DNA of 64,000 nt from Candidatus Bathyarchaeota archaeon (GTDB taxonomy: Archaea; Thermoproteota; Bathyarchaeia; Bathyarchaeales; Bathycorpusculaceae). This document shows positions 19,553-49,224 of the stretch, piece after piece. Position 1 is the first letter of the stretch. Each line of letters opens with the position of its first letter. Made by a program: the position numbers and the translations under genes. The notes below the pieces were generated by a model that was given only the letters and a program-made list of their open reading frames with translations, was not told the origin of the DNA and ran no database searches. Where the stretch lies: the NCBI GenBank assembly GCA_963702095.1, contig OY969706.1, positions 512,001 to 576,000 of the forward strand, in the 5' to 3' direction.

Positions 19553-19581
19553 ATGGAGCTGGGGATGGGAATTGAACCCAT
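19553..19581. repeat. Left att site: 29-bp direct repeat of the tRNA-Cys 3' end
   Basis: ATGGAGCTGGGGATGGGAATTGAACCCAT identical to 49196-49224. Confidence 0.96.
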
Positions 19582-19634
19582 TCCCGAGTGGAGATATCAC
19601 CCGCATACCCCTCTTTTTTCCAAATTTAGTTAGT

Positions 19635-20495
19635 TCAAATTTTTGATGGACTTAGTCTCAACAAGAACATTGTTTTTATAAACTCATAGATTTTTGGATC
19701 GTCTATACAAATACCTTCATTTGTTCCTTCATCAGCGTTCTTATTCCAGCCCAACAGTACCTGATTAATACCAGTCATCGCTGAAACGCCTTTGTAGGGG
19801 TCTACACCAATCAGTTCGTAATAGAAATGATGAGAATATTTTTTTTTCACAGCATCAACTATTTCTATTTGGTCCAGAATTGGACTTACAAGAGCGTAAA
19901 GCTTGCCGCCTCTGGAAAAATAGTCTCTCAAAGTTGCTCCAAATTGTTCTACAGGATCTAACTCTTTTGAAGCCATTCCTACGTCATCGAGTATGGATTT
20001 ATAGAAAACTCCTCTTCTACTAATAACAAAGACTTCATCAGGTTTTTTCTTAATCATTTCAATTGCTTTTCTGTAGAAAGTGTCTCTTCCAAATAAATAT
20101 TCGAAATGAGGGTCTGGCGAAGTCGGACCAGTTCCATACTGCTCTATGTATTTGTTAAGAGAATCCAGAGAAATGTGGTTAAGCTGTTGGTTGAATCTCA
20201 ATTGTGCCTTTTCTAACATCGTTTTTATGGTGTCGGGTGGCAAGATTTTGTATTTTGCTGGTCTCTGGTCTTTTGGTGTTGTGAGAATTATTAAGTTCTT
20301 AGTGTGAAGTGATTTGAGAGCAACATGCACTTTTCCTAACTGTATCCTCTTTCCCCCAGAAAAAGCAATTGTCTTAGCATCTGCAGGCTCCTTTGCTCGA
20401 AGTAAAGCTCTGAGTGTTTGCTTTTCCTCTGTTGATAAACTTTCACCCATTTCTGTGAGTATATCGAAAATATCTTTCTCTGCACTTGAGTCCAT
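19635..20495 (-). CDS. Divergent TrmB-like wHTH regulator
   Basis: LSTEEKQTLRALL...GKVHVALKSLHTKNLI...RPAKYKILPP, then an effector-like domain. Confidence 0.65.
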   Translation of the reverse strand: MDSSAEKDIFDILTEMGESLSTEEKQTLRALLRAKEPADAKTIAFSGGKRIQLGKVHVALKSLHTKNLIILTTPKDQRPAKYKILPPDTIKTMLEKAQLRFNQQLNHISLDSLNKYIEQYGTGPTSPDPHFEYLFGRDTFYRKAIEMIKKKPDEVFVISRRGVFYKSILDDVGMASKELDPVEQFGATLRDYFSRGGKLYALVSPILDQIEIVDAVKKKYSHHFYYELIGVDPYKGVSAMTGINQVLLGWNKNADEGTNEGICIDDPKIYEFIKTMFLLRLSPSKI

Positions 20496-20612
20496 AACAC
20501 CACCAAACTATTTGTTATTGGTTCTAATATTTAAAATATTCGACTATTCATAATAAATAGTCTTTTGTAGTTAGCCACCCTGATTATTCGTAGATATCGA
20601 GGTCGAGAGATA

Positions 20613-20756
20613 ATGTTGGAGCCTATAATAATAGGGTGCCAAACAAAATCTGAATTCATAATCTGCGGGAACTGCATCTACTTCAGGGAGTGTAAACTTC
20701 GTACCAGATTAGGAGTGGGCAAAGAAGATCCGACGAGCAAGATTTGGAAGCGATAA
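20613..20756 (+). CDS. Small Cys-rich protein (47 aa; not in the ORF track)
   Basis: MLEPIIIGCQTKSEFIICGNCIYFRECKLRTRLGVGKEDPTSKIWKR; GAGGT upstream. Confidence 0.45.
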   Translation: MLEPIIIGCQTKSEFIICGNCIYFRECKLRTRLGVGKEDPTSKIWKR

Positions 20757-20898
20757 CTAACAAAACGCTATACCGTCCCCGATACGAATTAGGACTAATT
20801 GAAAAACGCTTTGCAGTGTACAAATATGGATTGCTTCGGAACCCTCAGTTCAGTGAAGATGTCACCCTCATTACCCATTTTTTTCGTTAATAATTGGG

Positions 20899-21435
20899 CT
20901 ACAGGTTAAGGCTACAAGCTAGATCCAGAAGGTCCTTCAGTTCTTTTTGACCTATATTGTATTTGTCAAGTAGTGCTGCGAGTTTCAAGATGTCAAGAAC
21001 TTCGACTGGGATTGGAATTGTCCTATTCCATGCCTGTATAGCCCTCCAAGCTTCAGGTTTTATTTCACCATTAGTCACTAACAGAAGGCGCCTTGGATTA
21101 TCTTTTGATGTGCCATTTGGAAAATCGTGTTCTAGAGTACAAAAGGCTGCAAACATCTGACCCGATATTGTATTCATCCAATCAGGTAATGAAATGTCTC
21201 CAACTTTTACTTGTATAAGCAGAATCTGTTTTTTGCCTAATGGGTCATTTGTTTCATCGACGGTAGCGATTGTATCTTTTCCATGCTCGCTGGGACCATG
21301 AAGTGGTTGCACATTGAATTTAGAAATTTTTGTCGCAAGAAAAACTCTAACTAGTTTTCTTAATTTATCCTCATCCAGCTGCTGTAATGCAGGTACGATC
21401 AATAGTAAATCGGAGGACAAGATAACGAGCTCCAA
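20899..21435 (-). CDS. Mrr-like restriction-endonuclease-fold protein
   Basis: HGPSEHGKD...LIQVK (D..QxK), LLLVTNG and VEVLDILKL motifs. Confidence 0.7.
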   Translation of the reverse strand: MELVILSSDLLLIVPALQQLDEDKLRKLVRVFLATKISKFNVQPLHGPSEHGKDTIATVDETNDPLGKKQILLIQVKVGDISLPDWMNTISGQMFAAFCTLEHDFPNGTSKDNPRRLLLVTNGEIKPEAWRAIQAWNRTIPIPVEVLDILKLAALLDKYNIGQKELKDLLDLACSLNL

Positions 21436-22068
21436 TCAAGCAGTTGGCTTTTTGGATTGATCGGTAGCTTCAATTTTTTGTTTTTGTTCCTGATATTTTC
21501 TCATAATCACTTCAAGTTCTTTCTTCTCATCCTCAGGTGATTTGACAAGAAGCCCGCCAGTGTTCGCAAGAAACTTGCCGAGCGTTCTCTCAATCGACTC
21601 AAGTTTTTCAGACATCTGTTTGATACGACGATCAAGAGGTTCATCCACCAACATTTGTGCCGTGATCCAGCTATTCAGTACCGAGCGTGTGTCAATAGAA
21701 TCTTTGGAAGTAAACTCAACATTGAAGAGATTCTTGCATTTAGAAACCATGTTTATTGAAGTAATCTTTTCAGCGATTGTTTTCATATCGCTTTCTGGAA
21801 GGAAAAATCTCTTCTTTTCGCCGGCATTTAATATGGGGAAAAATACCTTCTTTCTATAGTCTGTAACCGGTTCTACCCAGAACTCAACCTGCAAGTCAAT
21901 TGCGGGGGTATTGCTAACATTTTGTATTCCAAATACTACAGAAACGGGACCGAGTGTATCTAGCAGAGGTTTGATTACGGGTGAATATCTCAATTGATTG
22001 CTTACTCGTACTTCATTGGTTAAAGCTTCAAGTGACTTTGATTTGTCTTGATCCATCAAACTCCCCAT
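21436..22068 (-). CDS. Hypothetical protein with C-terminal coiled coil
   Basis: 210-aa ORF directly abutting the Mrr-like gene. Confidence 0.6.
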   Translation of the reverse strand: MGSLMDQDKSKSLEALTNEVRVSNQLRYSPVIKPLLDTLGPVSVVFGIQNVSNTPAIDLQVEFWVEPVTDYRKKVFFPILNAGEKKRFFLPESDMKTIAEKITSINMVSKCKNLFNVEFTSKDSIDTRSVLNSWITAQMLVDEPLDRRIKQMSEKLESIERTLGKFLANTGGLLVKSPEDEKKELEVIMRKYQEQKQKIEATDQSKKPTA

Positions 22069-22240
22069 TTACTTATCAGTGTTTACCAATTTAATAGTAG
22101 CGATAAGGAGTGCTCATTCAGACTCAACGATCAGAAATCGCTCTTTAATATAGTGGAGCATTTTGCCCATGGGAGAGTTTTTTGCCAAAGACAAATTAGC
22201 CAAGACCAAGTAGTCCTATCTTCAGGGGGATGACGCTAAA

Positions 22241-23275
22241 ATGTTTAGGGATGCACCCGAATCATATCAGGGTAACGTTTTTCTTGAAGCTGCTTCCAGG
22301 CCAGCCAGCTTTGTTTCTGAATTATTCTACAATGGTACGTTTCAAAATATGGATTCTCTTTTTTACAATGGTTGGACGGATAAAGTTGTTGAAAGGTTGA
22401 AAATATCCAAGGGATTATTTCTTGCTTGTTACTTAGCTGATTTGAATGCTGCAATTCAAAATATGAAGAAGTTCAAGTGTTTCGATGGCATATTGGAAAA
22501 ACTATCTGAAGTAGATGATAATTTTATTCCTACGGTTTTTGAAATTGAGGCCGCAGAATTGATAATTAACATGTTCAAGGAACGTGCAACTGATCTAGAA
22601 TTTGCAGGGTGTTTTGCAACTAACGGTGACAAAAAGATCGATTTGAGGTTAAAAGTGGAAAATCACTGGATCTATTTCGAGATGACCAAAATTATGGATT
22701 ATGTTGGAAAGCTAGATACACTTCGTCTTTACAATTTGGCTTGTTCTTTTCTACTGGGTGCTAAAACACTTTCCGGAAAAACGCTTGAATTGCAACTTAT
22801 TTTCGAGAATTCCCCAAATCAAGGTTCAATTGACAGTGTTCTGAATGAAATTTCAAGTATGTTATCCAAAAATATATTTGAATTTACGGTTATCCATGAA
22901 AAATTCAAGTTTTCAGCAAAAGAAACAATTGTACCGAATGTTAGGCTTAAGATAAAATCAGATACTATAGCAAATAAATTAAAAGACAAGTACTTTGAAG
23001 AGCTAGAGCATTTTGATAATCAAACCATTAATTTGACTGTAATTGACACAACTTATTTGCCGGATACTCCGGGTGAATTGATTGATCTCACGCGAAAGAT
23101 CTTTAAGACCGAAGGAGACCTGAGTCCAATCTCAGCTGTAATTCTAGCCTGTAAGAAACATGTGATAGACAATAGAAATGCTTTTCCAATAACAGGAGCT
23201 TGGGAATTACCCGTTATTTTCAACGATAGATGTGATAAATATAAGATTGTTAAAGGGTTATTCCGTTTCAGTTAA
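22241..23275 (+). CDS. Hypothetical protein, possible PD-(D/E)xK fold
   Basis: VFEIEAA...KKIDLRLK...IYFEMTK spacing. Confidence 0.55.
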   Translation: MFRDAPESYQGNVFLEAASRPASFVSELFYNGTFQNMDSLFYNGWTDKVVERLKISKGLFLACYLADLNAAIQNMKKFKCFDGILEKLSEVDDNFIPTVFEIEAAELIINMFKERATDLEFAGCFATNGDKKIDLRLKVENHWIYFEMTKIMDYVGKLDTLRLYNLACSFLLGAKTLSGKTLELQLIFENSPNQGSIDSVLNEISSMLSKNIFEFTVIHEKFKFSAKETIVPNVRLKIKSDTIANKLKDKYFEELEHFDNQTINLTVIDTTYLPDTPGELIDLTRKIFKTEGDLSPISAVILACKKHVIDNRNAFPITGAWELPVIFNDRCDKYKIVKGLFRFS

Positions 23276-23309
23276 TTAACCCCTTTTTTGATTTTACTTG
23301 AATGGCCAA

Positions 23310-24254
23310 TTAACAATTATCTTTGAACCTAGACTCAACACCTGGATACCCAAAGCCTTCAACTGGCCAAGGTTCAGCCGGAAGTTTTGAGAAGATGATT
23401 TCCAATTTCGTGTAAATCGAGTTAGCCCAGGTTGTTTCTGGGGTATCCTTGAGATCTGGAATTTTTTGTTTTAAGTGTTCGCAAGCAAGTCCCAGTTCGT
23501 AGTTGGCAGTCTCGACTTTCTTCTTTCCGTCCATTAAATAGGAGATCGCTACACCCACTTTTTCGATTGGATAAAGTATAACGTCGGCTAAAACTCTTCC
23601 AGGCTTTCCTAATTCATAAGTTTGGGTTAATTCTAAAAGAATATGTTGAAGTTCGAGCAATAGATCGATGTGATCTTCAGGATAAACCACTTCAACTGGA
23701 TACCGTATTGCCTCTTGATAGTATTTTTCGGTTGCGACTTGATAAATTCTCATGGCGCCACCTAGATATTCGTCATCTAAAATCTTTTGAATTGATTCTG
23801 CTTTACTGAATTCCAAAGCTTTGCTTAGATAAGTTTTAGTTTGGATCCAATCCGGCTTTCTCATGGCATTTACAGAACTTCCAATACTATTAAGCCACTC
23901 CAAAATATCATGGCTCTTATACTTCTGTTCTTTTGAAATTTCTAATCGATAGAAAATGTCAAAAAGGCTTATTTCGGTATCTTGCATCTCAATAGCTAGA
24001 TCTCGCCAATCTCGAGAGGGTGGATCAAAATTGATAAGTGGTTCTAAGGCAAATCCCAATTCTCTATGGGTTCCGTTAGAAGAGCTCGTTAATTCTTTGT
24101 GAAGCTTAACAATATCGCCCTGGCTAATCTCTTGGTTGGAATAAAGGCGTTCCAGTTGATCCATTATTTTCGGTAATGAATTGTCATATCTGTAATTGTC
24201 AATGCACTCAATTAAAACAGATCCAATCACAAACTTTGCAATCTTCGGGTCCAA
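23310..24254 (-). CDS. Hypothetical alpha-helical protein
   Basis: 314-aa ORF; no motif recognised. Confidence 0.6.
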   Translation of the reverse strand: MDPKIAKFVIGSVLIECIDNYRYDNSLPKIMDQLERLYSNQEISQGDIVKLHKELTSSSNGTHRELGFALEPLINFDPPSRDWRDLAIEMQDTEISLFDIFYRLEISKEQKYKSHDILEWLNSIGSSVNAMRKPDWIQTKTYLSKALEFSKAESIQKILDDEYLGGAMRIYQVATEKYYQEAIRYPVEVVYPEDHIDLLLELQHILLELTQTYELGKPGRVLADVILYPIEKVGVAISYLMDGKKKVETANYELGLACEHLKQKIPDLKDTPETTWANSIYTKLEIIFSKLPAEPWPVEGFGYPGVESRFKDNC

Positions 24255-24337
24255 TCTAATTCCTTCTTTTATTAATGAGGGCTATAATTAGTCTTAAGGT
24301 TTGCCAAGGAAATTACGAATGCTTTCAGTGTGCACCT

Positions 24338-25069
24338 TTATACATGGAGACGAGAGTAGAAATGTTCAGCTTTTTGATTAATAACTGAAATAATAAGCCA
24401 AGTTCCGTAGTGGACGTGTGTTCCTACTAAGAAATATGGGTTGAAATCGTTAACAAACTCACAAAAACTGTTTTCGATCTTTTGCATGGCCTTGGGAGAA
24501 TTATTGTTCAAGAGTAGCTTTCTATAATAATTCCCAATTTCCATATCTTCGCACATAATTGAGTGTCCTTTGCAGTTTGGACGACACAAGAAATCTATCT
24601 TCATCCAGAAAGGAAGCAAACTAATTGAATTTATGCTCTTTCCTCTGAGACGAGTGTAATGTCCAGTTTTTCTTTTGCACTGGCGGTCTGCCCGGCAACT
24701 GGTTATTTCTGTGGGCTTGATTATTGAGAGCGACATTTTATTTCTTTGATTAAGGTAATCAAGTGAGGGACTTGTGTTGTTTCTAATTTTTTCAGCAACT
24801 GTAGCTTGGCTAGCGAAATCCAAAGGCTCAATTGTGTTATATTTTACTTTGCGGCTCTCGGGTCTACCGTCTCTGTTCGCTTTTTCATCAATTTCGTAGC
24901 TTATGTATTGGAACTTCTTAAATGGTCTACAAACGTAGTGACTCATTGGAACGGAGTACATGCGTCTAAATTTGCCCTCGGAAGTTATGCCAGCCACGCA
25001 AATGGCTACTTCATACGTTCTGCTTGTGTGGGGTTCTGCAATTCCCAATACTAACATTTTTTCCTTCAT
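24338..25069 (-). CDS. DUF488-associated protein, probable OB-fold family
   Basis: EPHTSRTYEVAICVAGITSEGKFRRMYSVP, DGRPESRK, MCEDMEIG and YFLVGTH motifs. Confidence 0.65.
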   Translation of the reverse strand: MKEKMLVLGIAEPHTSRTYEVAICVAGITSEGKFRRMYSVPMSHYVCRPFKKFQYISYEIDEKANRDGRPESRKVKYNTIEPLDFASQATVAEKIRNNTSPSLDYLNQRNKMSLSIIKPTEITSCRADRQCKRKTGHYTRLRGKSINSISLLPFWMKIDFLCRPNCKGHSIMCEDMEIGNYYRKLLLNNNSPKAMQKIENSFCEFVNDFNPYFLVGTHVHYGTWLIISVINQKAEHFYSRLHV

Positions 25070-25111
25070 AAATTCACTTCAGATAATAATCCTCGTTCTG
25101 ATAAAATAGAG

Positions 25112-25540
25112 TCAGAGATGAATAATTTCAAAACCTTCATTTATCATCTCAGCAACCAATCGCCTGTGACACTTGTCTGCTTTATCCTCACTGCACAGTA
25201 GACATGACACTTTTGTGTCTAATTTTAGGTCGTTTAGAATTTTCTTTGCATTTCTTGAATCCATAAGCGATTTGAAATTAACTTCATATTCAACCCAGTT
25301 TTTATCTTTACGATACTTGGAAAGAAGAGCTTCATCTGGAGCAAGTTGTTTAACACTAACGTATTCAATTCCAAATTGGCTTAGGATGAATTCCAGATCC
25401 GGACTTTTGGCAAAGCCTGAGAGTTGAGAAGAGTTATTCAATCTAATGTCCACAATTCTCTGGACCCCTGCCTCTTTCAGACGTGTGATGAATTCTTCTA
25501 AAGTCTTTTTGGTGAATCCAATTGTACATATCCTGTTCAT
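25112..25540 (-). CDS. DUF488-family protein
   Basis: TIGFTKKT, VDIRLNNSSQLSGFAK, LLCSEDKADKCHRRLVAE. Confidence 0.9.
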   Translation of the reverse strand: MNRICTIGFTKKTLEEFITRLKEAGVQRIVDIRLNNSSQLSGFAKSPDLEFILSQFGIEYVSVKQLAPDEALLSKYRKDKNWVEYEVNFKSLMDSRNAKKILNDLKLDTKVSCLLCSEDKADKCHRRLVAEMINEGFEIIHL

Positions 25541-25554
25541 CGAATAATCCTCTT

Positions 25555-26058
25555 CTAGAATCCTGTTAGTTTACTTTGATTCTTATTATTACTAGCTGTC
25601 TCTCGCTTTTTTGATCTTTTTGGTGAGAGAGTAAGGGTATGTGTATCTGCGTTTCCATCTTTATCTATGACTGTCACATCAATACCTCTCTTAATTAGTT
25701 CTACGATAATAAAGCGTCGATGACACTTTGAAATATCGAACTCCGAGCACATTAAGGCAGAAGACTTCTTTCCAATCTGTCGCAGTAGAAGGTCGATATT
25801 TTCTTTGAAGGCGGCTGAAGCGTGGAATTTTTCAAAGCCTCCAGTAGGGCGCCCTCCAAGTTTATCTCCAAAGTACAGATAGTCAATGTTTTCTCTTTGT
25901 ACAGAGGAAGATAGACTTTCGCGGTTAAAATGCGGAACATATTCGCTGTAGGGTTGAGACCTCAAATCAACCAAACACTCGATGTTCCATTTCTTGAGCC
26001 TCTCAATGAAGCCACTTAAGCTTTCATTTCCTGGGCATATCGAGAATATCATGGACAT
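25555..26058 (-). CDS. DUF488-family protein (second subtype)
   Basis: LVDLRSQPYS..PHFNRESL, LGGRP, LMCSE...CHRRFI. Confidence 0.88.
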   Translation of the reverse strand: MSMIFSICPGNESLSGFIERLKKWNIECLVDLRSQPYSEYVPHFNRESLSSSVQRENIDYLYFGDKLGGRPTGGFEKFHASAAFKENIDLLLRQIGKKSSALMCSEFDISKCHRRFIIVELIKRGIDVTVIDKDGNADTHTLTLSPKRSKKRETASNNKNQSKLTGF

Positions 26059-27510
26059 ACACCTTCTGCGTAATAATCCGGAACTGTCAAAACGCTTACG
26101 ACCATTGGCCAGTACCTCGGCTGAATTGAGCTTCCAGGTGGAGCATATTTTCCATCCTTAATCTTATTATTGGAATCAAGGGAATCTCCAGTTAAACCTA
26201 TCACGAAATACGTTTCCTTGTTTCTAAGTTCAACGATGTCCTGTGAATTCATTATTGTTTGATTACAGTTTTCAAGTTTGTCAATGATGAATTTGCAAAA
26301 TCTAATATCAGTGCACGTTATGGAAAAGACTCTTTGTTTATCGCTCTGCCTAACTATCCATATTCTGGGGTGTTTTTTTCCGATTACTATGTTGGATTGA
26401 ATTTCAAAATAAGGCACGGGACCCACTAAAACTAGCGACTTTTCTAGGCTGGTGGATAGTTCATCAAATAGTTCTTCCCGAGAACTGACTTTGTTAAGAA
26501 TTCTGTTATCGACCACTTCTGAGAGCAGACTTTTCCGTGTTTCTTCTTCTAGATTCATTACGAATTTAATGCCTTCTACTGCGCTAAATAGCAAATTCTC
26601 TTTTTGATGCTTGATTGGAAAGTGATTGCTAAATCCCATCTCGACAACATCAAAAAGTGATAGCCTCTTGCCATTGTCCATAATTATGTCTTCTTCCCCA
26701 AAACCCCCTGGTTTAATCGGACGAACCCATAATTTATCCTCATCTACCCCTGCAAGACAAATTCTTCCGTTTTTTTCCGATTCTACTAAGAATAGTAACT
26801 AATCGATTTTCTTGAGTTGAACTATATAAGGCATTTTGGGATTTGTCTAAACCCAGTTTTTTAAGTCTCGAACGGATAGCTCCTGTTCTTCTTTGGTGCT
26901 TTTTTGCTATCTCAGAAACAGAAAAACCTTCCTTGAAATATTTGGATAATTCACAATCTTCGTCCGGAGTCCAGCTTTCATATGCTCTCGGATCCTTTTT
27001 TCTAATTTCGCCAAGGTCGTATGACTTATCTTGAATTGCTTTCTGTGAAATCAATTGTTTTGGTTCGTCAGTAATAGAATTAAAATATGCTTTACCTGTT
27101 CTCTTAGAAATGTTAACAACAAACTTCTTCCTGGCTGAGAGATTTTGAAGTTTGCTTGTGTCTTTCCTTGTTGTCACAATATCTAGATCTTGGGCTTTTG
27201 TTCGAATTTCAAAAGCAAACTCGATCCCTTTATCTGATTTCCATATAACGTTAATTAAGCTTGTTCGCCCTTCTCGGACCAAATCCGGAACAGGATACTC
27301 AGTAATTGAGTGAAAACCTAGCTCATTGCCTATTCTCCATAACTTATACTCTGCAAGCTTGTGAACCCTCTTTCCAGCTTCAATTTCTACCCCCCCGAAT
27401 AGTTTTGCTAAATCTGCACCATCCCAGGTCTGCCATAATTGAGAACCGCAGTTAGGGCAAAATTTGTATTCTATTCGCGTTTCGTTTTTGCAGTTTGAAC
27501 AAACTGGCAT
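26049..27510 (-). CDS. Multidomain protein: Zn-ribbon, REase-like, HTH/Myb-like and dual-OB-like domains; frameshifted at an A7 run near 26770-26776
   Basis: CSNC..CPNC; AFEIRTK; RAYESWTPDED..GAIRSRLKKLG; removing one A joins ILSRIGKNGRICLAGVDEDKLWVRPIKPG to ORF 26049-26681. Confidence 0.7.
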
Positions 27511-27589
27511 CCGTAATCTATCAGTTGTTTGTTGTGAAGTAGTTTTAAGGATTGTGAACTAGTGATATTAATGCAGCTATTCGTGACGC

Positions 27590-37787: not shown

Positions 37788-37788
37788 A

Positions 37789-40369: not shown

Positions 40370-41550
40370 ATGGTTCAGAAAGAAATACTCTTTTCAGAAT
40401 TAAAAACTGCAGATTTATACGTCGACGCACTATACAAGGCAGGGATTTCAGGAAACGTCAGCGATGATCCGATAAGCAAATTGATGCTTTGCGAAAATCA
40501 AGGTGGATTTCGAATAGTCGGAAAACGGCCAATTCAGCATACAAATTCGCAGTGCTTTATTCAACACTGGATGACCCTGACTGGCCGGACAGAATAGATC
40601 TTGAATTAGGGTATTTCATCTATTATGGTGACAACAAAGAACCTGGTCACGACCTGTTAGCCACACCTAAAGGCGGAAACAGGTTGCTTCAATTTAGTTT
40701 TGATGTTATTAGTAGCAAACCCGCTCAGCGAGAAAAAGTTCCACCTTTCTTCATTTTCACAAGAGGTGAAAAAGGGAGAGATGTGGTGTTTCGAGGATTG
40801 GCGGCACCGGGATCTGAAAGAGTGAAGCCAACAGAACAGCTAGTTTCAATTTGGAAAACAAAAGAAGGGAAAAGATTCCAAAACTATCAAGCATACTTCA
40901 CGATACTTAACGTTCCAGTTGTTCCCAAACTATGGATTAACGATCTTATCGAAGGTAACCCTCTAAGCCGAAACTGCCCAGAACAGTGGCGCCAATGGGT
41001 AGAAAAAGGAGTCTATGTTGCACTAAAGTCAGAGCTTACCCGAAAGTACCGGTCAAGACTTGAGCAATCTCCTTCAAACGAAATGGAAAAATCCATTGTC
41101 AACGCGATTTACTCTTACTTCAAACCAGATCCATTTGGATTCCAACATTGTGCTGCTAAAGTGGCGAGTTTGATGGATAAGAACGTAATAAGTTGCGATG
41201 TGACCAAACTTTGGCGTGATGGCGGTAGGGACGCTGTAGGCTTATATAGAATTGGCTCAGAGGGTGACAGCATAAATGTTGAATTTGCGTTAGAAGCGAA
41301 ATGTTATGAGTCAAGCAAGGGAGTCGGAGTAAAAGAAACATCAAGATTGATATCAAGGCTAAAGCATCGTGAATTTGGAATTTTCATCACTACATCTTAT
41401 GTGAGCCAACAAGCTTACGAGGAAATTAGAGAAGATGGACATCCCGTAATTATTGTAGCTGGCAGAGACATCGCTAGAATTCTGATAGACGTGGGTATTC
41501 GATCTCAAAATGATGTTCTCGAATGGCTAAAGACCAATTTTCCCAAGTAG
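40370..41550 (+). CDS. AspBHI/MspJI-like modification-dependent restriction endonuclease (SRA-like plus Mrr-cat); frameshift near 40530
   Basis: DLYVDALY, NQGGFR, WPDRID..FIYYGDNKEPG..TPKGGN, FRGLAAPG, RFQNY, DGGRDAVG, LEAKCY. Confidence 0.88.
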
Positions 41551-41627
41551 AGAATACGCAGATCAAAGATGGCGTAAACTGTTCAAATGATTAGCGCACG
41601 CTGAATATTAATTCACGCTGTTGATTG

Positions 41628-42908
41628 TCAAGCAAATCTGAAAGCTCCCAACGGAGGATAAGCAACCAGTGGAATTCCATATCGAATAGCATCTACTGCG
41701 TGGTCACGTCCCTTTACATCAACATTGTATTCCAACAGCTCACTTATCGCATTAACGCAGCGATGAGAAATGAAGAATCTTGGTGTATTATCTCCGGACT
41801 TTCGGAAGCGGGCGCCTAAATCACGTAAACCATCTTCGCGTTTAGCCGAATATGCTTCAGCAGCAAACCCTGAAATTCCTCTCTCTGGTAATCCACGCCT
41901 TATTTTAGTGATTGATTCAGGCTCAGACTTATCACACACTACAGGTCCACCGCCATATGTTTTTCTGAATCCGTCGAGCGCAACAATAAGGTCCTCAGCG
42001 GATGACTGCACTTTATAGTATTCGTCCAGGACCCAGAGCCTTCCGTCTCCATCAAACCCGTCAACTACGATTGCGGATGGATTAGTCCAACCGAAATCAA
42101 CACCATAACGAATCTTTAACGCTTTCAGGTCTGGAGGTTCTCTTACATGAATAGAGGTATCGAATTGAAAACTGCCCGCAGCAACATTTGCGAATCTTCC
42201 ATAAATGAACCGTTCAGCTAATCCTCCAGAATGACTTTGAACTATTGTGTCGATGAAGGCTTTGGGAAGAAATGGATTATCAAAAATGCTCCAGCGATAG
42301 ATAATGCTTTCAGGGTTTCGGGTTTGAGGATTTTCCAACTCGTTAAACAGAACACTCCCGAGTTTGTCTGTGGTGGTTGTTATCCATAAACCTGGCTTGA
42401 CTGGCACTTTGCATCTACCTGAACCTCGAAGACGTCGCTTAGCAGTTAGAAGAGCTTTATCTAAATGCAGAATTAGCCTTGCCTCGTCTAAATGGACATA
42501 ATCCAGATTTGCTCCCTCTACTGATTCTGGATTATCCCAGCTTCGAAACCACCAGTTAGAACCATTCTTCCAGTGCAACCTCATCTCCAAGCGGTTAAAA
42601 TCAGCAATGTAAGGATGACTAGTAAACGGAAAGGGACAGCCTAACAGGTATTTTGATTCGAGTGCAGGAATGATATTCAAACGAACCATTGGATAGCTAG
42701 GTTCAGTAATAACGCCAACGCTTCCCGGATAATCAAGCGCCCAGCGGATGTCTTCAAATAATCCACAGATAGTTTTTCCCGCACCTCCTCCGCATAAGGC
42801 AGCACGTTCATAGTACACTCCTCTACCTGCATGGAACTCAAATTGTTTTGGAGTTGGGCAATAGAGTAGGCTATTCTTCCCTGGAATAGGTGCTTCATTA
42901 CTTAGCAT
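41628..42908 (-). CDS. terL: Terminase large subunit
   Basis: PTPKQ, CGGGAGKT Walker A, EGANLDYVHLDEA Walker B, GVDFGWTNPSA and DHAVDAIRYG nuclease motifs. Confidence 0.93.
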   Translation of the reverse strand: MLSNEAPIPGKNSLLYCPTPKQFEFHAGRGVYYERAALCGGGAGKTICGLFEDIRWALDYPGSVGVITEPSYPMVRLNIIPALESKYLLGCPFPFTSHPYIADFNRLEMRLHWKNGSNWWFRSWDNPESVEGANLDYVHLDEARLILHLDKALLTAKRRLRGSGRCKVPVKPGLWITTTTDKLGSVLFNELENPQTRNPESIIYRWSIFDNPFLPKAFIDTIVQSHSGGLAERFIYGRFANVAAGSFQFDTSIHVREPPDLKALKIRYGVDFGWTNPSAIVVDGFDGDGRLWVLDEYYKVQSSAEDLIVALDGFRKTYGGGPVVCDKSEPESITKIRRGLPERGISGFAAEAYSAKREDGLRDLGARFRKSGDNTPRFFISHRCVNAISELLEYNVDVKGRDHAVDAIRYGIPLVAYPPLGAFRFA

Positions 42909-43395
42909 TTTGCTTCTCTTTCTCTTGCCTTTGCCGTTCCGTAGCTTCTAAGATCAATTTCCTCATTTCTGGGTCAACATCAAATGGTGTTCCAGCAATG
43001 GTCATGGTAGACTCTATCTGTTGAGGCGCCTCTTTTACGATCCCAGCCTTCATTAGTAATAAGCCAATTCGCATTTTTCCGTCTATTATCGTCCGTAAAG
43101 CTCCTATCTTAGCGTTTGAATTGTCGGCAGTGGCATACTCTATCCAGCAGCGCCTTGTGGCCTCATTTGCTCCTGCAATCAACTCTGCAAAATATGACTT
43201 GTCATTGAGCCGAACAACGGAATCAATCCAGCTTTCTCTTCTGTCCCAATCTTTGTAGATTGCATTGATTTCCCTTCTGCGCTCGTATGGGTTACTGATA
43301 TCCTTCGTCATTTCTTCAGCTGCGTCTCTTAGACGTGCACCCCTCACCATATGCCTTAGAAGTATTTCGCGTCTATCCAAGAGCCCCGTGTTCAA
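42898..43395 (-). CDS. Putative terminase small subunit
   Basis: 165 aa, N-terminal HTH-like and helical; overlaps the terL start. Confidence 0.55.
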   Translation of the reverse strand: MNTGLLDRREILLRHMVRGARLRDAAEEMTKDISNPYERRREINAIYKDWDRRESWIDSVVRLNDKSYFAELIAGANEATRRCWIEYATADNSNAKIGALRTIIDGKMRIGLLLMKAGIVKEAPQQIESTMTIAGTPFDVDPEMRKLILEATERQRQEKEKQNAK

Positions 43396-44482
43396 GCGGG
43401 TTCCCCCTTAATTGGACATTTTTGTCTCACATACTCAAGGGTGATACTGATTCTATTGGAGCTGGCGCTTGATCTGATTTCATCGTTTATTCTGGTGCTT
43501 CCTCCGCTATGTTTGGCATGCCCTACTCTCTTGATACGCCAATGGTCCATGTTGCCTCTTACCAACTGAGGATTACTAGTTACAATATAGAATGGAACTC
43601 TTGTTTGGGAAGTATAGAGTTCAGCAGTGAAGTTTAGGAGGCGCTTGCCTACTCCTATGCCTTGATAGTCTGGCAGAACTACAAGTCTATGGACTCGATA
43701 GTATCTGCTTCTCATGTGAATGTGCATGACAGCTATGAAAGCAACAGGCTTTTCTTGGTAAACTGCAGCGTAGCATCGAGCATGATTGGCCAAGGATCCA
43801 CTCAGATAGTGATGTTGCCGAAACATTTGCCAAAGTGAATTGCCGCACCTATGAACTTGGAGTTCAACGGGCGGCCTGCTTCTTTTTTTTGGCTAAACTC
43901 CATTGTATCGGTACACAAGACCCAATCAGGGTCCAGCCAGTCCACGACATCATAATGGCAAGTTACGGCTATGAATTTCTTCGCTGATCGACGGACTGCT
44001 TTGCTAATAGCAAAAGCGCTTACCTTTGCAATCTCTCTGTCCACAACGCTCGTGAATTCGTCAAAGACTATCAGCTCCTTGTTGAGACAGAGGGCTCGTG
44101 AGATATCTACTCGCATTTTCTCACCCTGGCTGAGGCAGTCATAGCTTTTGAGCCAATCCGGCGGAGAAGCAAACCCTACACTTGCCAGAGCCTTCGTGAC
44201 TTCTCCGGTCTCAAGATCCACCGGGAAATCATCAAGGATACACTTTTGCTTGTACTCGAACCCTCGAATGTAGTCATCAGGGAAAAGCTGTTTTGCTATG
44301 CTTGTTTTTCCCGAGCCGCTTCTGCCTACAATAACCCCAATTTGCCAATCTTCAGTTTCAATTGGAAGTGAACCTTTGAAGCGCTTTTCTAGTTTGACGT
44401 CGGAGAGAGCGAAGCTTCCAACAATGCTTTGTGCTCGGAAGCTATCTGCTTGTATCCAACTTTTTATAATGTCAAAATCCGT
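43392..44482 (-). CDS. ABC-type ATPase plus GNAT acetyltransferase, joined by a -1 shift at 43883-43890
   Basis: Frame extends upstream of 44221 to GRSGSGKT, then LSQGEKMR, VFDEFTS, VTCH; GNAT part FRQHHYL..RLVVLPDYQGIGVG. Confidence 0.85.
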
Positions 44483-45043
44483 AGTTTGTATCCCTCGCTC
44501 TTTAGTTTTTCAAAGAAGCGTTGTTGCTCAGTTTCATCTTTGCACTCTACGATAAGCTCCCAGGTTTCTGGAACAAATACTGAGTCATATTGTCTATTAT
44601 CACCTGGAAAGCGTTCTCCAACCGATTCCAATAGCAGCTTGAGATTTTCCTTTTCCCCTAACTCAGCAATCCGTTCGAACTCGGCTGCATCCAGGTCCTT
44701 TGTTGTGTTTGCCTTTGAGTTTGTTGAGTATTTGGCGGAGCATTCGCCTATCGACGTCAGTGATTGGCAACCGCAGAACAGGCGCGTAGAATTCACCATG
44801 TTGCCTACAGACTTCTGCTCTCTGTTCCCCATCTGCGTACATGCCGTCTTTGTTGGTTATAATTGGGTATGTCCAACCATACCTTTGCAAGCTCAGCCAA
44901 ATTTGTTTTTGCTGCTTAATGGTGGTTCGGTTAGGGTTGTTTTGGTCCGTGGACAAGAGACGAATATCTTCTAATAATGGTAAATAGGCATCCGGCACTT
45001 TGAGTGATGTCTTCCCTTCAGTGGAATTAACGGTGTTGCTTAT
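44464..45043 (-). CDS. ParB N-terminal-domain protein; frameshift near 44700; start uncertain
   Basis: DQNNPN..SLQRYGWTYPII..ADGEQR..NKLKGKH, continuing to LIVECKDETEQQRFFEKLKSEGYK. Confidence 0.8.
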
Positions 45044-46929
45044 GGCATAGCCGCCCCTTTTCCATTTGAAGAATCGGAGAAATCTTTTGGTTCCTCGGTA
45101 CTTATCCAAAGATAATATACTTTTTGTGTTCGGCGGTTATTTTTGCCAGTGAATGGTTCGCTGCCTTGTTCGATTTCTTCTCTATCTTTTAGGCTTCTGA
45201 CCGCTAACTCTGCTTCTCTTGCATCGACATTCGCCATACGCATCATGTCGGAATGGTAGACTTTTTGACCGTTCTGCCCATGCTTTTTTATATATTCCCT
45301 AACTCGAGCGAGTGGTTTGCCCATATCAACATAAGTGACTAATTCAGATGCAGCTATCAGGCAGGGTTTGAGGAAAGCCCATGCCCTTTGAACATGTCTT
45401 TTTTGTACGATTATTCGATCGGTCAGTTGAATAGTTGAATTAGTTGGATTAGTAGGGTTAACTGTGTTAGTATCCTTTATGTCTTCTACTAATTCTACTA
45501 ATCCTAATAATTCAACTAATTTACGAATTGAAGTCTGCTCCTTTTTTGTGAGCTTGGAATATTCGCCAAGTGATTCGCTAACCAAGTTGATGTCAGCGAA
45601 AGCTATCACATAGTCGAGGTATCTTCCACCAAAAGCATCAACATTCGCAAACTCTGGGCTTTCATATACTTCTTTTTCGACAACCTCGTTGTAGAATTTC
45701 AGGGCTTCATCGCTGAGCTCAAAGTACGCACCTTTCTTGTCTAATTGGTCAAGAAGAATTAAATTTTCTGTTAAATGGGTCTGCAGCTCAAAAGCCTCCA
45801 CCCTTAGCCGTGCTCTCGGTCTCCGTTTCGCTTCTCCAGGATTCAATACCCACCGCGGTAGTAATCCACCGCATGCCATTTCCCTTGTCACGTTTTCCTT
45901 CAAAACTTCAGGAGTGCAAGTGCTCACGATGCTGAGGTAGGGTTCCTCGATTGTGTATTGTGTTTCCACGCCGTTGAGGCTTTTTTTGCTTCTCGAGTAC
46001 TTTTTGCAGCCAAAAATTTCATTGAGGACTTCAGCTAATGTTGCTTGGTAGTTGCCAGTTTTTATGCCTTTAAGCAGTTTACTGAATTCACCCATTGGCT
46101 GGATGACAGCGTTTTTCTTGCTCATTATTTCAACAAGCCTTTCTTGTGAAGCCACATCATTGTCTGTCAACCTATCGGGTGGTATAAGCTCTAAACCCAT
46201 GTCCTGACTGGTTGATTTCCTCGTTGTGGTGCTCTGCCCGATATGAGCCATATACATTCGGTGGTAAACTGCTTTGGGCTGAATCAAATTAACCACGTCG
46301 TGCCCTAAGAGGTGCCCAATTCCAAAGTAGGCCATCCCGACTCCGTAGTTCGTTGGTGCATCCGTCTTGCAATCCCAATACCGTTTTGTTACCTCAATGT
46401 GGCTTTCAATAGGGTCTGGAACGTAATCTTCACGTTTGGTTTCATGTTTAAGAATGACTTGATTCGAAAATTGACCGGAGTAAACTAGCGTCATATAGTT
46501 TCCTCCTTTTCCGCTTCCAAGGTCGGAGTGCTTTCTAACATTAACCTGAGTAATTTTGGTCCGATAAGAAAGACTGGAGTAATCAACCCTGGTTTTCTCT
46601 ATTTGAAAAGCGAGCCACTTTACGCCAACATCATATTTTTCCATCTTCAAAATTGTTTGAGTGCAACCGCAAATTGGGCATGCTCTCACACTATAGCCAT
46701 CCTCAAGCATCCAATGTGCGTCTTCCAAATTGCTCAAAAGAGTGTTAAAGTCCACACCACAATTCCCACACCTCGGAACTAGGATTTCTTGAAAACCATA
46801 ACCGCAAACTGTACATCCTTCAGAACGCGATTGATCTTTTGTGTCAAGTTCTCGCACCAAATATCTATGATTCTCAACATCATAGCTATGGCAATGCGGG
46901 CATTCTACGTGGTCTTGATTTATCACCAT
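45040..46929 (-). CDS. Putative replication protein: N-terminal Zn-ribbons, DUF3987-like ATPase, C-terminal wHTH-like region
   Basis: Four CxxC pairs; IGQSTTTRKSTS, GEFSKLL, YLSIVSTCTP, GGLLPRW. Confidence 0.72.
   Translation of the reverse strand: MVINQDHVECPHCHSYDVENHRYLVRELDTKDQSRSEGCTVCGYGFQEILVPRCGNCGVDFNTLLSNLEDAHWMLEDGYSVRACPICGCTQTILKMEKYDVGVKWLAFQIEKTRVDYSSLSYRTKITQVNVRKHSDLGSGKGGNYMTLVYSGQFSNQVILKHETKREDYVPDPIESHIEVTKRYWDCKTDAPTNYGVGMAYFGIGHLLGHDVVNLIQPKAVYHRMYMAHIGQSTTTRKSTSQDMGLELIPPDRLTDNDVASQERLVEIMSKKNAVIQPMGEFSKLLKGIKTGNYQATLAEVLNEIFGCKKYSRSKKSLNGVETQYTIEEPYLSIVSTCTPEVLKENVTREMACGGLLPRWVLNPGEAKRRPRARLRVEAFELQTHLTENLILLDQLDKKGAYFELSDEALKFYNEVVEKEVYESPEFANVDAFGGRYLDYVIAFADINLVSESLGEYSKLTKKEQTSIRKLVELLGLVELVEDIKDTNTVNPTNPTNSTIQLTDRIIVQKRHVQRAWAFLKPCLIAASELVTYVDMGKPLARVREYIKKHGQNGQKVYHSDMMRMANVDAREAELAVRSLKDREEIEQGSEPFTGKNNRRTQKVYYLWISTEEPKDFSDSSNGKGAAMP
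45422..45521. repeat. Inverted arrays of 9-bp repeats (consensus ATTAGTWGR) inside the rep gene; candidate origin
   Basis: aatagttga/attagttgg/attagtagg facing tctactaat/tctactaat/cctaataat/tcaactaat. Confidence 0.7.
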
Positions 46930-47017
46930 TAGGTTTTAACTCCTTTATTTTATTGCCTTTTGACATAATAGTTTTCGTTAATGTTGTTTCAGATTTTTCT
47001 CGAAAATGGTTTTGGTA

Positions 47018-47209
47018 TTATTTTTTGGAATCTGCAGAGTCTGCATCTCCCAAAAAAGGTTTTATGATGATGGTTCCGTGGACCTCTTCAAGTGTGACTT
47101 CATTTAATTTTTTACCATTCTCGTTTTCCACGAGTTTTAGCCAACTTGCGGGTAAAGTTACACCACGGCTATCTCCGTGTTCTATAATTTTTCTTAGTAT
47201 CGGGCACAT
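47018..47209 (-). CDS. AbrB/MazE/SpoVT-like DNA-binding protein
   Basis: RKIIEHGDSRGVTLPASWLK...IIIKP. Confidence 0.8.
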   Translation of the reverse strand: MCPILRKIIEHGDSRGVTLPASWLKLVENENGKKLNEVTLEEVHGTIIIKPFLGDADSADSKK

Positions 47210-47263
47210 GTTTAGTTTATTAACATAAACTTCATATAAGTAATATCTCTTTGATACTACTTT

Positions 47264-47869
47264 ATGAAACCGAGCGTTCTATTTGCATTACTTGAAAATT
47301 TTCCATTGACTTTCCAAGACCTCACATCAAAATGTGAATCCAATCGAAACCGTTGCCGCAAGATTCTCAATGATTTGAAGAAAAAAGGTTTCATTACAGA
47401 AAGTGAGCACAAACGAGGGCAAAAAGCGTTTTTTAGTCTAACGGAGAAAGGTCGAAGTGAAGCCCTCAAAGAAGTCAACAATGCTTTGGCATCAAACATG
47501 AGAATACTGAAATTCGACCTTGAACAGACCTTAACAAAATATGGTCTATATCATATGAGACGACAAGCTGCCTTTCACCCAAATAAGGAGATATTTGAGA
47601 GGAGATGCATCGATCAAGACAGTGTAAAAATGATGCAAGCAAAAAGGGAAGAGGTCTTGGAACCCTTAAACAATCTTTTCTTTGAAGTCGCAAAAGCCTT
47701 CGCAATAGCTGACGGTCGATTTCTCACATTAGAGAAAAATGGCGTTCCAAAGTATGATTTTGATAACTTGGCGTTTTGGTTTGAAGGTGGAAAGGCGCAC
47801 TTTATTGTTTTGCGAGATAATAAGAAATTAGGAGAGTTCCTAAGCGATATAAAGAAACCCGAGACCTAA
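47264..47869 (+). CDS. wHTH transcriptional regulator
   Basis: LTFQDL...ILNDLKKKGFI...FSLTEKGR; divergent from the AbrB/rep unit. Confidence 0.75.
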   Translation: MKPSVLFALLENFPLTFQDLTSKCESNRNRCRKILNDLKKKGFITESEHKRGQKAFFSLTEKGRSEALKEVNNALASNMRILKFDLEQTLTKYGLYHMRRQAAFHPNKEIFERRCIDQDSVKMMQAKREEVLEPLNNLFFEVAKAFAIADGRFLTLEKNGVPKYDFDNLAFWFEGGKAHFIVLRDNKKLGEFLSDIKKPET

Positions 47870-48012
47870 AAAGCTGAGTTCAGTCCAAAAGTGATTCCTT
47901 CCTTAAATTCGATTAGATCTTCTCACAAGGAAGCAGTATCAAAGTGATATTACTTATTCTGAGCTTCATGTATATTTTATGAGAATAAACCCGGAAAGAG
48001 GTAATCCCGATA

Positions 48013-49155
48013 ATGAAGTGCTGCCCACAATGCCAATCAGAAAAGACTTGGAAAGATGGCATTCGAGAAAGCAGCAACGGTGCGATCCAACGACATGTTT
48101 GCCGAAGTTGTGGCTATCGTTTTTCAGAAAATGATTCCGCCAAATCATTTTATTCACCTTCAAGTATAGGTTCTTTTAGCCAAATAGGCGCAACGCCTAA
48201 AGCCCATGGGCAGTTAGTGACAAATTTGGCAGCGATAGAACCGCTCAAAGAAGGGCCAGCGGGAGCCACAACTAAAACAGCAGAAGCCAAAGGCAAAATC
48301 CTCGAACATGCATGGTGGCTAAAGAAACAAGGTCGCAAAGACGGCACAATACTTGGCATAACAAAGCTCCTAAAAATCATGGTCAAAAAAGGAGCTGACC
48401 TCTACAATCCAGAAACAATCAAAGAAGTCATAGCCAAACAAACCTGGTCAGAAGGAAGAAAAGAAAACGCAGTAAACGCATATACATCATTTCTAAGAAT
48501 GACTCAAGGAACTTGGAATCCACCAATATACTGCAGAATCAGAAAGCTTCCTTTCATCCCAACAGAGCAAGAAATCGACACCTTAATTTCAAGTTGCACC
48601 TCAAAAGCAGCAACACTTCTTCAAACACTAAAAGAAACCGGCGCAAGAGTAGGTGAAGCCTGGAACCTAAAATGGACCGACCTTGACGTAGACAGAAGAA
48701 CAATAAGGATTACACCTGAAAAAGGAAGCGAACCAAGAATATTCAAGGTAACCCCAAAACTAATGACTATGCTACAAACTTTGCCAAAGAATAGCGTCTT
48801 CATCTTCGGAAGTTATCCCCTAAACGGCTACCGAACATGTTTTACACGTCAACGAAGAAAAGCAGCCACTAAACTCGCAAATCCTCGCCTACTGCAAATA
48901 ACATTCCACACTTTCAGACACTGGAAAGCCACAACCGAATACGCCAAAACCAAAGACATCCTCCACGTTATGCGACTACTCGGCCACAAGAACATCAAAA
49001 ACACCCTTGTTTATACGCAACTAATAGAGTTCAAGGATGACGAATTTATCTGCAAAATCGCAAAGACTATTCAAGAAGCCAGTGAACTCGTAGAAAACGG
49101 CTTTGAATATATTTGCTCATTCGAGGAAGCTAAGCTATTCAGAAAACGCAAGTAG
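48013..49155 (+). CDS. int: Tyrosine integrase with N-terminal Zn-ribbon
   Basis: ETGARVGE, HTFRH, LLGHKNIKNTLVY; CPQC..CRSC; adjacent to the att site and tRNA. Confidence 0.95.
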   Translation: MKCCPQCQSEKTWKDGIRESSNGAIQRHVCRSCGYRFSENDSAKSFYSPSSIGSFSQIGATPKAHGQLVTNLAAIEPLKEGPAGATTKTAEAKGKILEHAWWLKKQGRKDGTILGITKLLKIMVKKGADLYNPETIKEVIAKQTWSEGRKENAVNAYTSFLRMTQGTWNPPIYCRIRKLPFIPTEQEIDTLISSCTSKAATLLQTLKETGARVGEAWNLKWTDLDVDRRTIRITPEKGSEPRIFKVTPKLMTMLQTLPKNSVFIFGSYPLNGYRTCFTRQRRKAATKLANPRLLQITFHTFRHWKATTEYAKTKDILHVMRLLGHKNIKNTLVYTQLIEFKDDEFICKIAKTIQEASELVENGFEYICSFEEAKLFRKRK

Positions 49156-49195
49156 CTAATTAATGATTATCTCCACAAAAGCTTGGGGTTCGTCC

Positions 49196-49224
49196 ATGGA
49201 GCTGGGGATGGGAATTGAACCCAT
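49196..49224. repeat. Right att site (overlaps the tRNA-Cys 3' end)
   Basis: Identical to 19553-19581. Confidence 0.96.

Follow-up and report, generated by a model that had tools for sequence, protein, structure and literature searches.

We analyzed a 64,000-nucleotide stretch of the genome of a Candidatus Bathyarchaeota archaeon (GCA_963702095.1, contig OY969706.1, positions 512,001 to 576,000), hereafter called the window, which contains a 29.6-kb segment bounded by two copies of a tRNA-Cys 3′ end (19553–49224 in window coordinates). According to our analysis, this element is very probably a defective (cryptic) provirus of the Caudoviricetes, now joined to a defence island in decay, at an integration hot spot in tRNA-Cys. 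A tyrosine integrase put its ancestor into the 3′ end of the tRNA-Cys gene and duplicated a 29-bp core. Its relatives show that the lineage carries a ParB-like – ABC/GNAT – small terminase (TerS) – large terminase (TerL) block, followed by portal, protease, HK97-type capsid and tail genes. In the window copy, everything downstream of TerL would have been lost, the break falling just after TerL at the spot where relatives have variable inserts, and about 22 kb of mosaic defence genes would have come to stand in place of the lost genes. The cargo may have reached TerL either by replacement inside the provirus or through a deletion joining a recently inserted provirus to a defence island that had stood at tRNA-Cys for longer.

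We favour a defective provirus because the ParB frameshift and the loss of the ABC start represent decay in conserved genes, because no virion gene or relic was found in the element while relatives carry a structural module, and because several more pieces of this virus family are present in the genome. The element cannot make virions. Its integrase, rep gene and attachment (att) sites are intact, which suggests that at most it could still excise and replicate. Of the two explanations proposed in the initial annotation of this DNA, the one that fits the evidence is a provirus in which a defence island took the place of the morphogenesis block.

The packaging block belongs to a tailed-virus lineage of Bathyarchaeia

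ParB-N, ABC, GNAT, an open reading frame (ORF) of 165 residues and TerL lie downstream of rep on the same strand and are packed or overlapping. TerL (41628–42908, minus strand) is intact. It matches phrog_2 (1.5e-25), reaches just 19.8 bits with Pfam Terminase_6N, under the cut-off, and retains all invariant columns of a 9-sequence alignment, including the P-loop GxGKT, DE and the nuclease Asp. A maximum-likelihood tree built from 35 full-length TerLs places the window protein as sister to that of the IMG/VR contig L052 (100/100), inside a 12-member clade (100/99) of viral contigs and proviruses. The profile match, the conserved columns and the nesting among viral TerLs identify it as a Caudoviricetes TerL. 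L052, a contig of 27 kb, is the closest relative, with 78% identity for TerL, 75% for ParB, 85% for ABC and 57% for TerS.

The 165-residue ORF (42898–43395, minus strand) overlaps the start of TerL and is a putative TerS by its position, size, conservation and all-helical model. L052 and 9 further relatives have homologues at this place. The model (predicted local distance difference test score, pLDDT, of 70) shows a bundle of helices at the N-terminus and a long hairpin of helices. No Pfam or PHROG family was matched, and Foldseek against the PDB gave nothing at E ≤0.001; the small terminase 4xvn came at rank 31 with an E-value of 2.9.

Two genes of the block are damaged. The ParB-like gene (ParB-N; 44464–45109, minus strand; phrog_620, 2.3e-11) is broken in two by a +1 frameshift: one base is inserted near 44700, outside any homopolymer, and the tblastn match of the gene accordingly falls in two frames. 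In at least 8 relatives the gene is one unbroken frame of 187–188 residues. The ABC-type ATPase (43802–44482, minus strand; phrog_11143) is an open frame without a canonical start: it has ACG at the position of ATG in a same-genus provirus locus (G029, 74–78% identical) and ATT at the position of GTG in the closest relatives, the L052 clade, and its first canonical start lies only downstream of the P-loop.

The GNAT acetyltransferase (43392–43889, minus strand) matches Pfam Acetyltransf_7 and Acetyltransf_1 as well as positions 217–353 of phrog_11143, the family that the ABC frame also matches, and its homology reaches upstream to 43889. The two genes overlap in two frames (43802–43889 in the window), by about 25–90 nucleotides in the window and in three same-genus loci (G014a, G014b and G012). 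They form one fused protein in phrog_11143 (357 residues) and across the junction in G029, and in another relative, L083, a single ORF was matched by both the ABC and the GNAT query, i.e., the two are fused. The arrangement could be a conserved programmed frameshift or the result of repeated fusion and fission. Since the overlap is also found in intact relatives, it is not in itself a sign of decay.

The ParB-like – ABC/GNAT – TerS – TerL order defines the conserved packaging block of these viruses. The coupled unit of rep, ParB-N, ABC/GNAT, TerS and TerL described in the initial annotation is thus supported for rep, ParB-N, ABC/GNAT and TerL, with the corrections that ParB is split, that ABC has lost its start and that TerS is assigned by position.

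Relatives carry structural genes after TerL and the element does not

TerL relatives occur in 14 of the 61 genomes searched, the source genome included, all from the same genus. We examined six of the seven strong same-genus loci, the contig of the seventh (G034) being too short, and the ParB – ABC – GNAT – (TerS) – TerL block is kept in five of them. In G014a, G014b and G012, TerL is followed by protease, cement/scaffold, major capsid protein (MCP; phrog_267, 1.8e-10), portal-like, tail tube (Phage_tube_2, 1.8e-19) and fibre genes, with capsid and tail genes at most about 4 kb from TerL and usually a variable insert between TerL and the structural module. At G029 a long same-strand gene array with a fibre homologue lies downstream of TerL, and at G001b portal-like and protease homologues continue until the contig ends. 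At G001a, TerL stands alone and is truncated.

In L052, portal (phrog_146, 1.3e-44), protease (5e-16) and major head protein (1.9e-11) genes come just after TerL, and the nucleotide homology between the window and this contig stops at the TerL 3′ end. In IMG/VR, 24 loci run on for at least 6 kb beyond TerL; our own hidden Markov models (HMMs) detected portal, protease or MCP homologues there in 21 of them, and PHROGs did so in 2 of the remaining 3. In two contigs of metagenome-assembled genomes (MAGs), L087 (TerL 81% identical) and L090 (67%), TerL is followed by homologues of the L052-type portal and protease, and a third, L089 (83%), stops at TerL. The loci where no virion genes were seen downstream are the truncated G001a and L079, L088 and L094, which were left unannotated. 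The initial annotation had suggested looking at what follows TerL in relatives; these loci yielded structural modules, the outcome it had named as speaking against a satellite.

Inserts just after TerL are variable in the relatives and often on the opposite strand, which shows that this site is a cargo hot spot in the virus lineage. At G014b (L024:349–3654), the gene that comes immediately after TerL, on the opposite strand, codes for a protein of 1101 residues, whose C-terminal domain of about 230 residues has about 15 copies across the source genome. We also observed that L090 (CAWEAR010000034.1), from a MAG labelled 'uncultured delta proteobacterium', carries an L052-type Bathyarchaeia provirus (TerS 99% and portal 86% identical to L052); the label may reflect mis-binning.

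Searches for the same genes in the element gave a consistent negative result. Pfam and PHROGs gave no structural match for any of its ORFs, 19 structural proteins from relatives, used as tblastn queries, matched nowhere in it, and tblastn with the L052 proteins found no virion gene. Our HMMs for portal, MCP, protease, tube and fibre, run over all six frames, gave a best E-value of 0.013 to an off-frame piece of 52 residues; as a positive control, the TerL HMM gave 1.9e-173 in this search. Portal, HK97-fold MCP and tail genes, which characterize a complete member of the Caudoviricetes, were each not found by these searches, in agreement with the initial annotation. The layout of integrase, rep, TerL and cargo had no second case among the loci examined, which were 6 from the genus, 35 from IMG/VR and 5 of the 12 on MAG contigs.

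The element is integrated in a tRNA-Cys gene used repeatedly

The only tRNA found in the window by ARAGORN is tRNA-Cys(GCA) (49197–49272, minus strand). Its 3′ end contains attR (49196–49224), and this 29-bp core is a perfect direct repeat of attL (19553–19581, no strand assigned), as the initial annotation had reported. Duplication of a tRNA 3′ end in this way classically marks the action of an integrating tyrosine recombinase, and the integrase gene lies beside the tRNA while the repeat of its 3′ end marks the far end of the element.

The integrase (48013–49155, plus strand), predicted as intact by the initial annotation, is indeed an open frame (Pfam Phage_integrase, 7e-19; phrog_1, 2e-28). 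It has an N-terminal Zn ribbon, and its translation contains R..HxxR..H..Y, which we take to be the catalytic motif. A winged-helix regulator (47264–47869, plus strand) is weakly indicated by phrog_11046 (7.5e-9) and by TrmB (1.6e-5, under the Pfam cut-off). Of the divergent winged-helix/AbrB pair that had been proposed, only this half was recovered: the ORFs at 47257–47499 and 47018–47209 had no Pfam or PHROG match, AbrB included, and the best PDB hit (E 0.027) was to an unnamed protein. The rep gene (45040–46929, minus strand) encodes a protein of 629 residues with a Zn ribbon and a primase/DUF3987-like part (PHROG DNA primase, 1e-10; DUF3987 weak). Its homologues were found in the source genome only and in 0 of the 60 other genus genomes, and the window integrase and rep are not common to L052 or to G014a, G014b and G012. 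A second rep copy (source genome 207306–208772, 70% identical) lacks the N-terminal 170 residues or so, and an integrase paralogue (50%) lies at 213218–214507. These two paralogues flank tRNA-Thr and tRNA-Leu and are probably members of two different integrated elements.

A degenerate third copy of the 3′ part of tRNA-Cys lies to the left of the element (18370–18425, minus strand; 89% identity over 37 nucleotides by blastn-short). The likeness extends past the 37-nucleotide match when the sequences are compared by eye, and the copy is the remnant of an older att site. A single ORF, of 293 residues, lies in the 1.1 kb that separate this remnant from attL. This stretch also matches the tRNA-Cys region of many same-genus genomes, and 26–29 bp of the att core are repeated near tRNA-Cys in many of them. 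The recurrence of the core in the genus, together with the third copy, indicates that the tRNA-Cys site is an integration hot spot. The third copy also implies that the island is a tandem or older array starting to the left of 19553, and with the many att-like copies in relatives it makes tandem arrays plausible.

The right flank of the element is kept in 40 of 40 genus genomes. No clean empty site was found, and in no relative examined does the left flank lie beside tRNA-Cys; in G014 the tRNA-Cys is missing at the syntenic place. Several features of the flanks were observed in passing. A repeat of about 130–145 nucleotides occurs at 49531–49675 and 11989–12118 (98% identical). The genome has at least 5 more copies of it, and G007, the closest relative, has many; the repeat looks like a miniature inverted-repeat transposable element. 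G007 has the genes of window 49.8–59.8 kb followed directly by the inverted genes of window 1.9–0 kb, a gene order which implies that roughly 58 kb, the tRNA-Cys island among them, were inverted or rearranged (breaks near 1900 and 59850), and synteny with G014 likewise stops near 59.85 kb. The second gene from the tRNA, a host membrane-protein gene (50145–51300, minus strand), is split by a 1-nucleotide insertion near 50800 relative to G007; its orthologues in G007 and G014 have 375–385 residues.

Most of the defence cargo is broken

The gap between the TerL stop and the next, convergent gene is 77 nucleotides (41551–41627), close to the 80 bp given by the initial annotation, and is followed as described there by 22 kb of nuclease, helicase and restriction-modification genes (19582–41550). 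The description of the element as loaded with defence systems was overstated: defence genes are present and most of them are broken.

The largest unit is a Druantia-type operon on the plus strand, in which a DruE helicase stands with DruF, DruL and DruK. The DruF-like gene (27865–29922; PADLOC DruF4/DruF2, 383 bits) is in about three pieces through two frame changes, with profile positions 1–375 matched at 5e-115, positions 474–677 at 5e-35 and the middle in another frame. The DruL-like gene (29906–30895) is one open frame (DruL4, 7e-84, profile positions 2–324 of 330). The DruE-like helicase of about 1900 residues (30889–36653; DruE2/DruE4, 1207 bits) is in five pieces through four frame changes, and the pieces correspond to profile positions 1–154, 153–1390, 1410–1664, about 1694–1813 and 1803–1923, their frames being taken from the ORF coordinates. 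The DruK-like PD-(D/E)XK nuclease (36650–37787; DruK 1e-12 and 7e-5; Pfam PDDEXK_1) is in two pieces. The gene content is therefore that of Druantia and the frames are interrupted in all but DruL, with the caveat of assembly error discussed below. A DruE homologue is present in 0 of 85 other genus genomes, which makes horizontal acquisition of the system probable.

Next to this operon lie an open frame for a HaeIII-like restriction endonuclease (37747–38787, plus strand; Pfam RE_HaeIII, 1.2e-15) and a broken C5 cytosine methyltransferase (38806–39827, minus strand), whose N-terminal (39360–39827) and C-terminal (38806–39153) pieces match positions 1–133 and 226–323 of Pfam DNA_methylase in differing frames. 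With its methyltransferase split, the HaeIII-like restriction-modification system is not intact. A Vsr very-short-patch repair endonuclease (39890–40288, plus strand; Pfam Vsr, 1.4e-22) is an open frame, and an AspBHI-like/Mrr-type, modification-dependent endonuclease of type IV (40370–41550, plus strand; Pfam RE_AspBHI_N, 4.7e-56, and Mrr_cat) is frameshifted near its N-terminus, profile positions 2–28 lying in a separate frame.

The attL-proximal part has, at 19635–24254, ORFs of 286 (19635–20495), 178 (weak Mrr_cat), 210 (21436–22068), 344 and 314 (23310–24254) residues without a family, for which Pfam, PHROGs and PADLOC were negative or weak. On the minus strand these are followed by a PDC-M19B-like candidate defence gene (24338–25069; PADLOC 1.7e-27), two DUF488 genes that are PDC-M45C-like (25112–25540; 2.2e-46) and PDC-M45B-like (25555–26058; 2.5e-28), both with Pfam DUF488, a DuOB protein with a weak PDC-M45A match (26049–26681; 3.8e-4; Pfam DuOB) and a Zn-ribbon protein of 256 residues with a weak GcrA-like part (26740–27510; Pfam matches under cut-off). 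The GC content changes in blocks, from about 38% at 19–27.5 kb to about 47% at 28–39 kb, which indicates that the cargo is a mosaic.

In total, the cargo contains 10 frame changes in 13.7 kb (4 in DruE, 2 in DruF, 1 in DruK, 2 in the C5 methyltransferase and 1 in the AspBHI-like gene). As a control, we compared 97 G014 orthologues (107 kb) with the source genome: 87 gave a single full-length match, and about 2–4 of the other 10 are clearly disrupted. In the right flank, 1 of about 10 genes is disrupted. Breakage in the cargo is well over ten times the background rate of the genome, and most of the defence cargo is inactivated, with local consensus error as the alternative.

Points that weigh against a decayed provirus, and sequencing error as an alternative

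Several observations weigh against our interpretation. The single ParB frameshift is within background, given the roughly 0.2–0.7 expected in 7.6 kb, and TerL, TerS, GNAT, rep and integrase are open frames. Relaxed selection on terL, a possibility raised by the initial annotation, is not seen: in relative-rate counts the window TerL is no faster than that of L052 (22 vs 14, 19 vs 17, 21 vs 17 and 21 vs 19; chi2 ≤1.8). On the side of the relatives, the portal call in loci of the G014b type relies on a weak Pfam match (1.2e-3) and on position, and IMG/VR contigs are chosen for viral hallmark genes, so that the figure of 23 of 24 loci is biased to complete modules. Finally, all 10 cargo breaks are frame changes, with 0 nonsense codons, a pattern also expected from local long-read consensus errors, and related MAGs likewise have split TerL and portal genes. 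Open backbone frames and an unaccelerated TerL imply that the loss was recent or that the genes are still in use; the loss of the structural module may thus be recent.

The last of these points leads to the alternative of an assembly artefact, in which the islands of two strains were joined or consensus indels piled up where the long-read assembly was thinly covered or heterogeneous, in the latter case the defence systems and ParB then being truly intact. The ParB break is also a frame change, and the flank gene with a 1-nucleotide insertion relative to G007 is in keeping with such errors. We nevertheless consider this unlikely, since the host genes are nearly clean (87 of 97 orthologues), at least 4 cargo break zones have no homopolymer of 4–5 bases or more, and the ABC defect is a substitution rather than an indel. 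Errors of this kind also cannot remove a structural module of 15–20 kb, and the main conclusion would stand.

A satellite of tailed viruses is poorly supported

The initial annotation had also proposed a satellite-like element that brings its own terminase and borrows helper capsids. Spelled out, such a helper-dependent element would excise, replicate with its own rep, pack its 29.6-kb genome by means of its own TerS and TerL into procapsids and tails of a co-resident tailed virus, and scatter defence genes on its way. The element does combine an integrase, att sites and its own replication gene with the lack of most virion genes, as satellites do. The integrase, att sites, rep, TerS and TerL are intact, the rate of TerL is not raised, and the length of 29.6 kb is close to that of related viruses (27 kb for the L052 contig; 31,982 bp for a Fuxivirus, as given in the part of PMC10848311 consulted). 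The genome moreover holds a structural locus at 1.095–1.108 Mb that lacks this terminase type and is a conceivable helper.

This locus (1095232–1108216; L033/L034) contains intact-looking protease, cement, MCP (76% identical to G014b), portal-like (62%), tube and fibre genes and is devoid of the ParB to TerL block of that virus type. Its capsid gene, at 1.106 Mb and detected via phrog_267, is the single HK97-type capsid gene detected in the source genome; Pfam Phage_capsid and Phage_portal gave nothing over the whole genome, and no homologue of the L052-type portal exists anywhere in it. Other pieces of the same virus family are scattered through the chromosome. A C-terminal TerL fragment lies at 2.046 Mb, and protease and fibre fragments are also present. 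A second relic (2917438–2937346) has an intact ParB-ABC-GNAT (ABC 82% identical) and fibre fragments, is without TerL, and also encodes Vsr (55%), a C5 methyltransferase (Dcm) and an integrase (41%).

We considered whether the terminase arm in the window and the structural arm at 1.095–1.108 Mb are one rearranged virus and rejected this as unlikely: the closest TerL relatives pair with another portal/capsid type, which is missing in the source genome, a TerL fragment with 93% identity to G014b lies elsewhere in it, and the structural locus adjoins another, multi-copy terminase type. This second terminase, T4 gp17-like and of 482–485 residues (phrog_2, 1.2e-37; PDB gp17, 1e-11), has three copies in the source genome (1090402–1091847, corresponding to L033:5400–6848; 1210468–1211913; 2735005–2736432). 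Its cassette includes an ORF of 146–150 residues and, in 2 of the 3 copies, one of 93–140 residues. Two copies are 88% identical, their flanks otherwise having nothing in common. The type is found in 46 of the 60 other genus genomes, with up to 7 copies each and mostly open frames. As a terminase that has no virion genes beside it, this type may be of greater interest than the element in the window.

As regards a satellite, the evidence runs largely the other way, and we judge it quite unlikely. Satellites form recurrent conserved families, whereas the layout in the window is so far unique, with rep not found in any of 60 other genus genomes, nor DruE in any of 85. Nearly every TerL relative with downstream sequence has virion genes. 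ParB is frameshifted and the ABC start is lost, both genes being conserved in intact relatives. The portal type paired with the closest TerLs is missing from the source genome, which is littered with other fragments of the same lineage. To our knowledge, satellites that keep a TerL (cf-PICIs, phage-inducible chromosomal islands that form capsids) keep capsid genes too, and we count this against the proposal as well. More specifically, we hold it to be very doubtful that the element is a living hitcher, stuffing its 29.6-kb genome into the capsids and tails of a co-resident virus of the same lineage.

The weakest alternative, a virus that is still autonomous, its capsid, portal and tail proteins having diverged too far to be recognized among the ORFs without a family (286, 210, 344, 314 and 256 residues), is extremely improbable, because these five total about 4.2 kb on both strands amid nuclease and defence genes, none is portal-sized, the 344-residue model has no HK97, portal or tail match, and the structural genes of close relatives are readily recognized. 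The fold comparison covered the 344-residue ORF (22241–23275, plus strand), the largest of those without a family. Its model (pLDDT 80) gave no capsid, portal or tail match against the PDB and BFVD, so that portal or capsid folds, which the initial annotation had named as speaking against its proposal if present among such ORFs, were not found in the one checked. The ORF has a D..ExK motif, with D134, E147 and K150 conserved in its 9 homologues, and only weak PD-(D/E)XK matches. ESM Atlas searches with the 344- and 314-residue ORFs returned only unnamed bacterial clusters or scores <0.8.

Discussion

Tailed viruses and integrase-bearing proviruses of Bathyarchaeia, the 'Fuxiviridae' and 'Kunpengviridae', are described in the consulted part of PMC10848311, and surveys of archaeal proviruses exist (PMC11705971 and PMC13573593, likewise in part). 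Judged on L052 and the same-genus proviruses, the element shares with these viruses the TerL clade, the ParB – ABC/GNAT – TerS – TerL block and the proviral state. The viruses, both these families and L052 with the proviruses, have portal, protease, HK97-type capsid and tail genes, whereas the element has none of them.

Among the closest parallels are the cryptic prophages of E. coli and the defence islands at P2/P4 hotspots. In the sections of PMC9122126 that we drew on, these resemble the element in combining a tRNA and a tyrosine integrase with a partial viral backbone, in having lost morphogenesis genes and in carrying anti-virus systems at a variable hotspot. Measured against that same portion of the paper, the element differs from its bacterial counterparts in its archaeal host, in the replication and packaging arm kept with an intact TerL, and in a cargo that is mostly inactivated. 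The order DruF – DruL – DruE – DruK is common to the window and to Druantia as modelled in PADLOC (DruE2/E4, DruF2/F4, DruL4, DruK), with the difference that three of the four window genes are broken by 7 frame changes.

With phage satellites (phage-inducible chromosomal islands (PICI), cf-PICI, P4, and PICI-like elements (PLE)) and with the archaeal pSSVx/pSSVi and SRCEs, the element has in common that it carries an integrase and a replication gene of its own, that virion genes are few or absent, and that a TerS candidate and defence cargo are present. It differs from them in that it is not a recurring streamlined family, is as large as a full virus, has a TerL without capsid genes and has a damaged backbone. 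According to the part of a recent preprint available to us (10.1101/2025.02.15.638363), pSSVx and pSSVi were until then the sole described archaeal satellites, to which it adds plasmid-derived ones, the SRCEs, of spindle-shaped viruses; the archaeal satellites known from this source parasitize spindle-shaped and not tailed viruses. Our literature search, which did not extend to supplements, found no archaeal satellite of tailed viruses and no Druantia within an archaeal provirus. If the element were packaged by a helper, it would bear on the open question whether tailed archaeal viruses have satellites, and a living hitcher would be the first case in Archaea of a satellite that exploits a head-tailed virus; satellites with a TerL but without capsid genes would also be new as a type.

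As a defective provirus, the element represents an ordinary fate of integrated viruses, namely the loss of capsid and tail genes with defence genes in their place. Fragments from a single lineage of tailed viruses build up at tRNA hot spots in the chromosomes of Bathyarchaeia, and bacterial-type defence systems such as Druantia and HaeIII-like restriction-modification reach these archaea on such islands and then decay.

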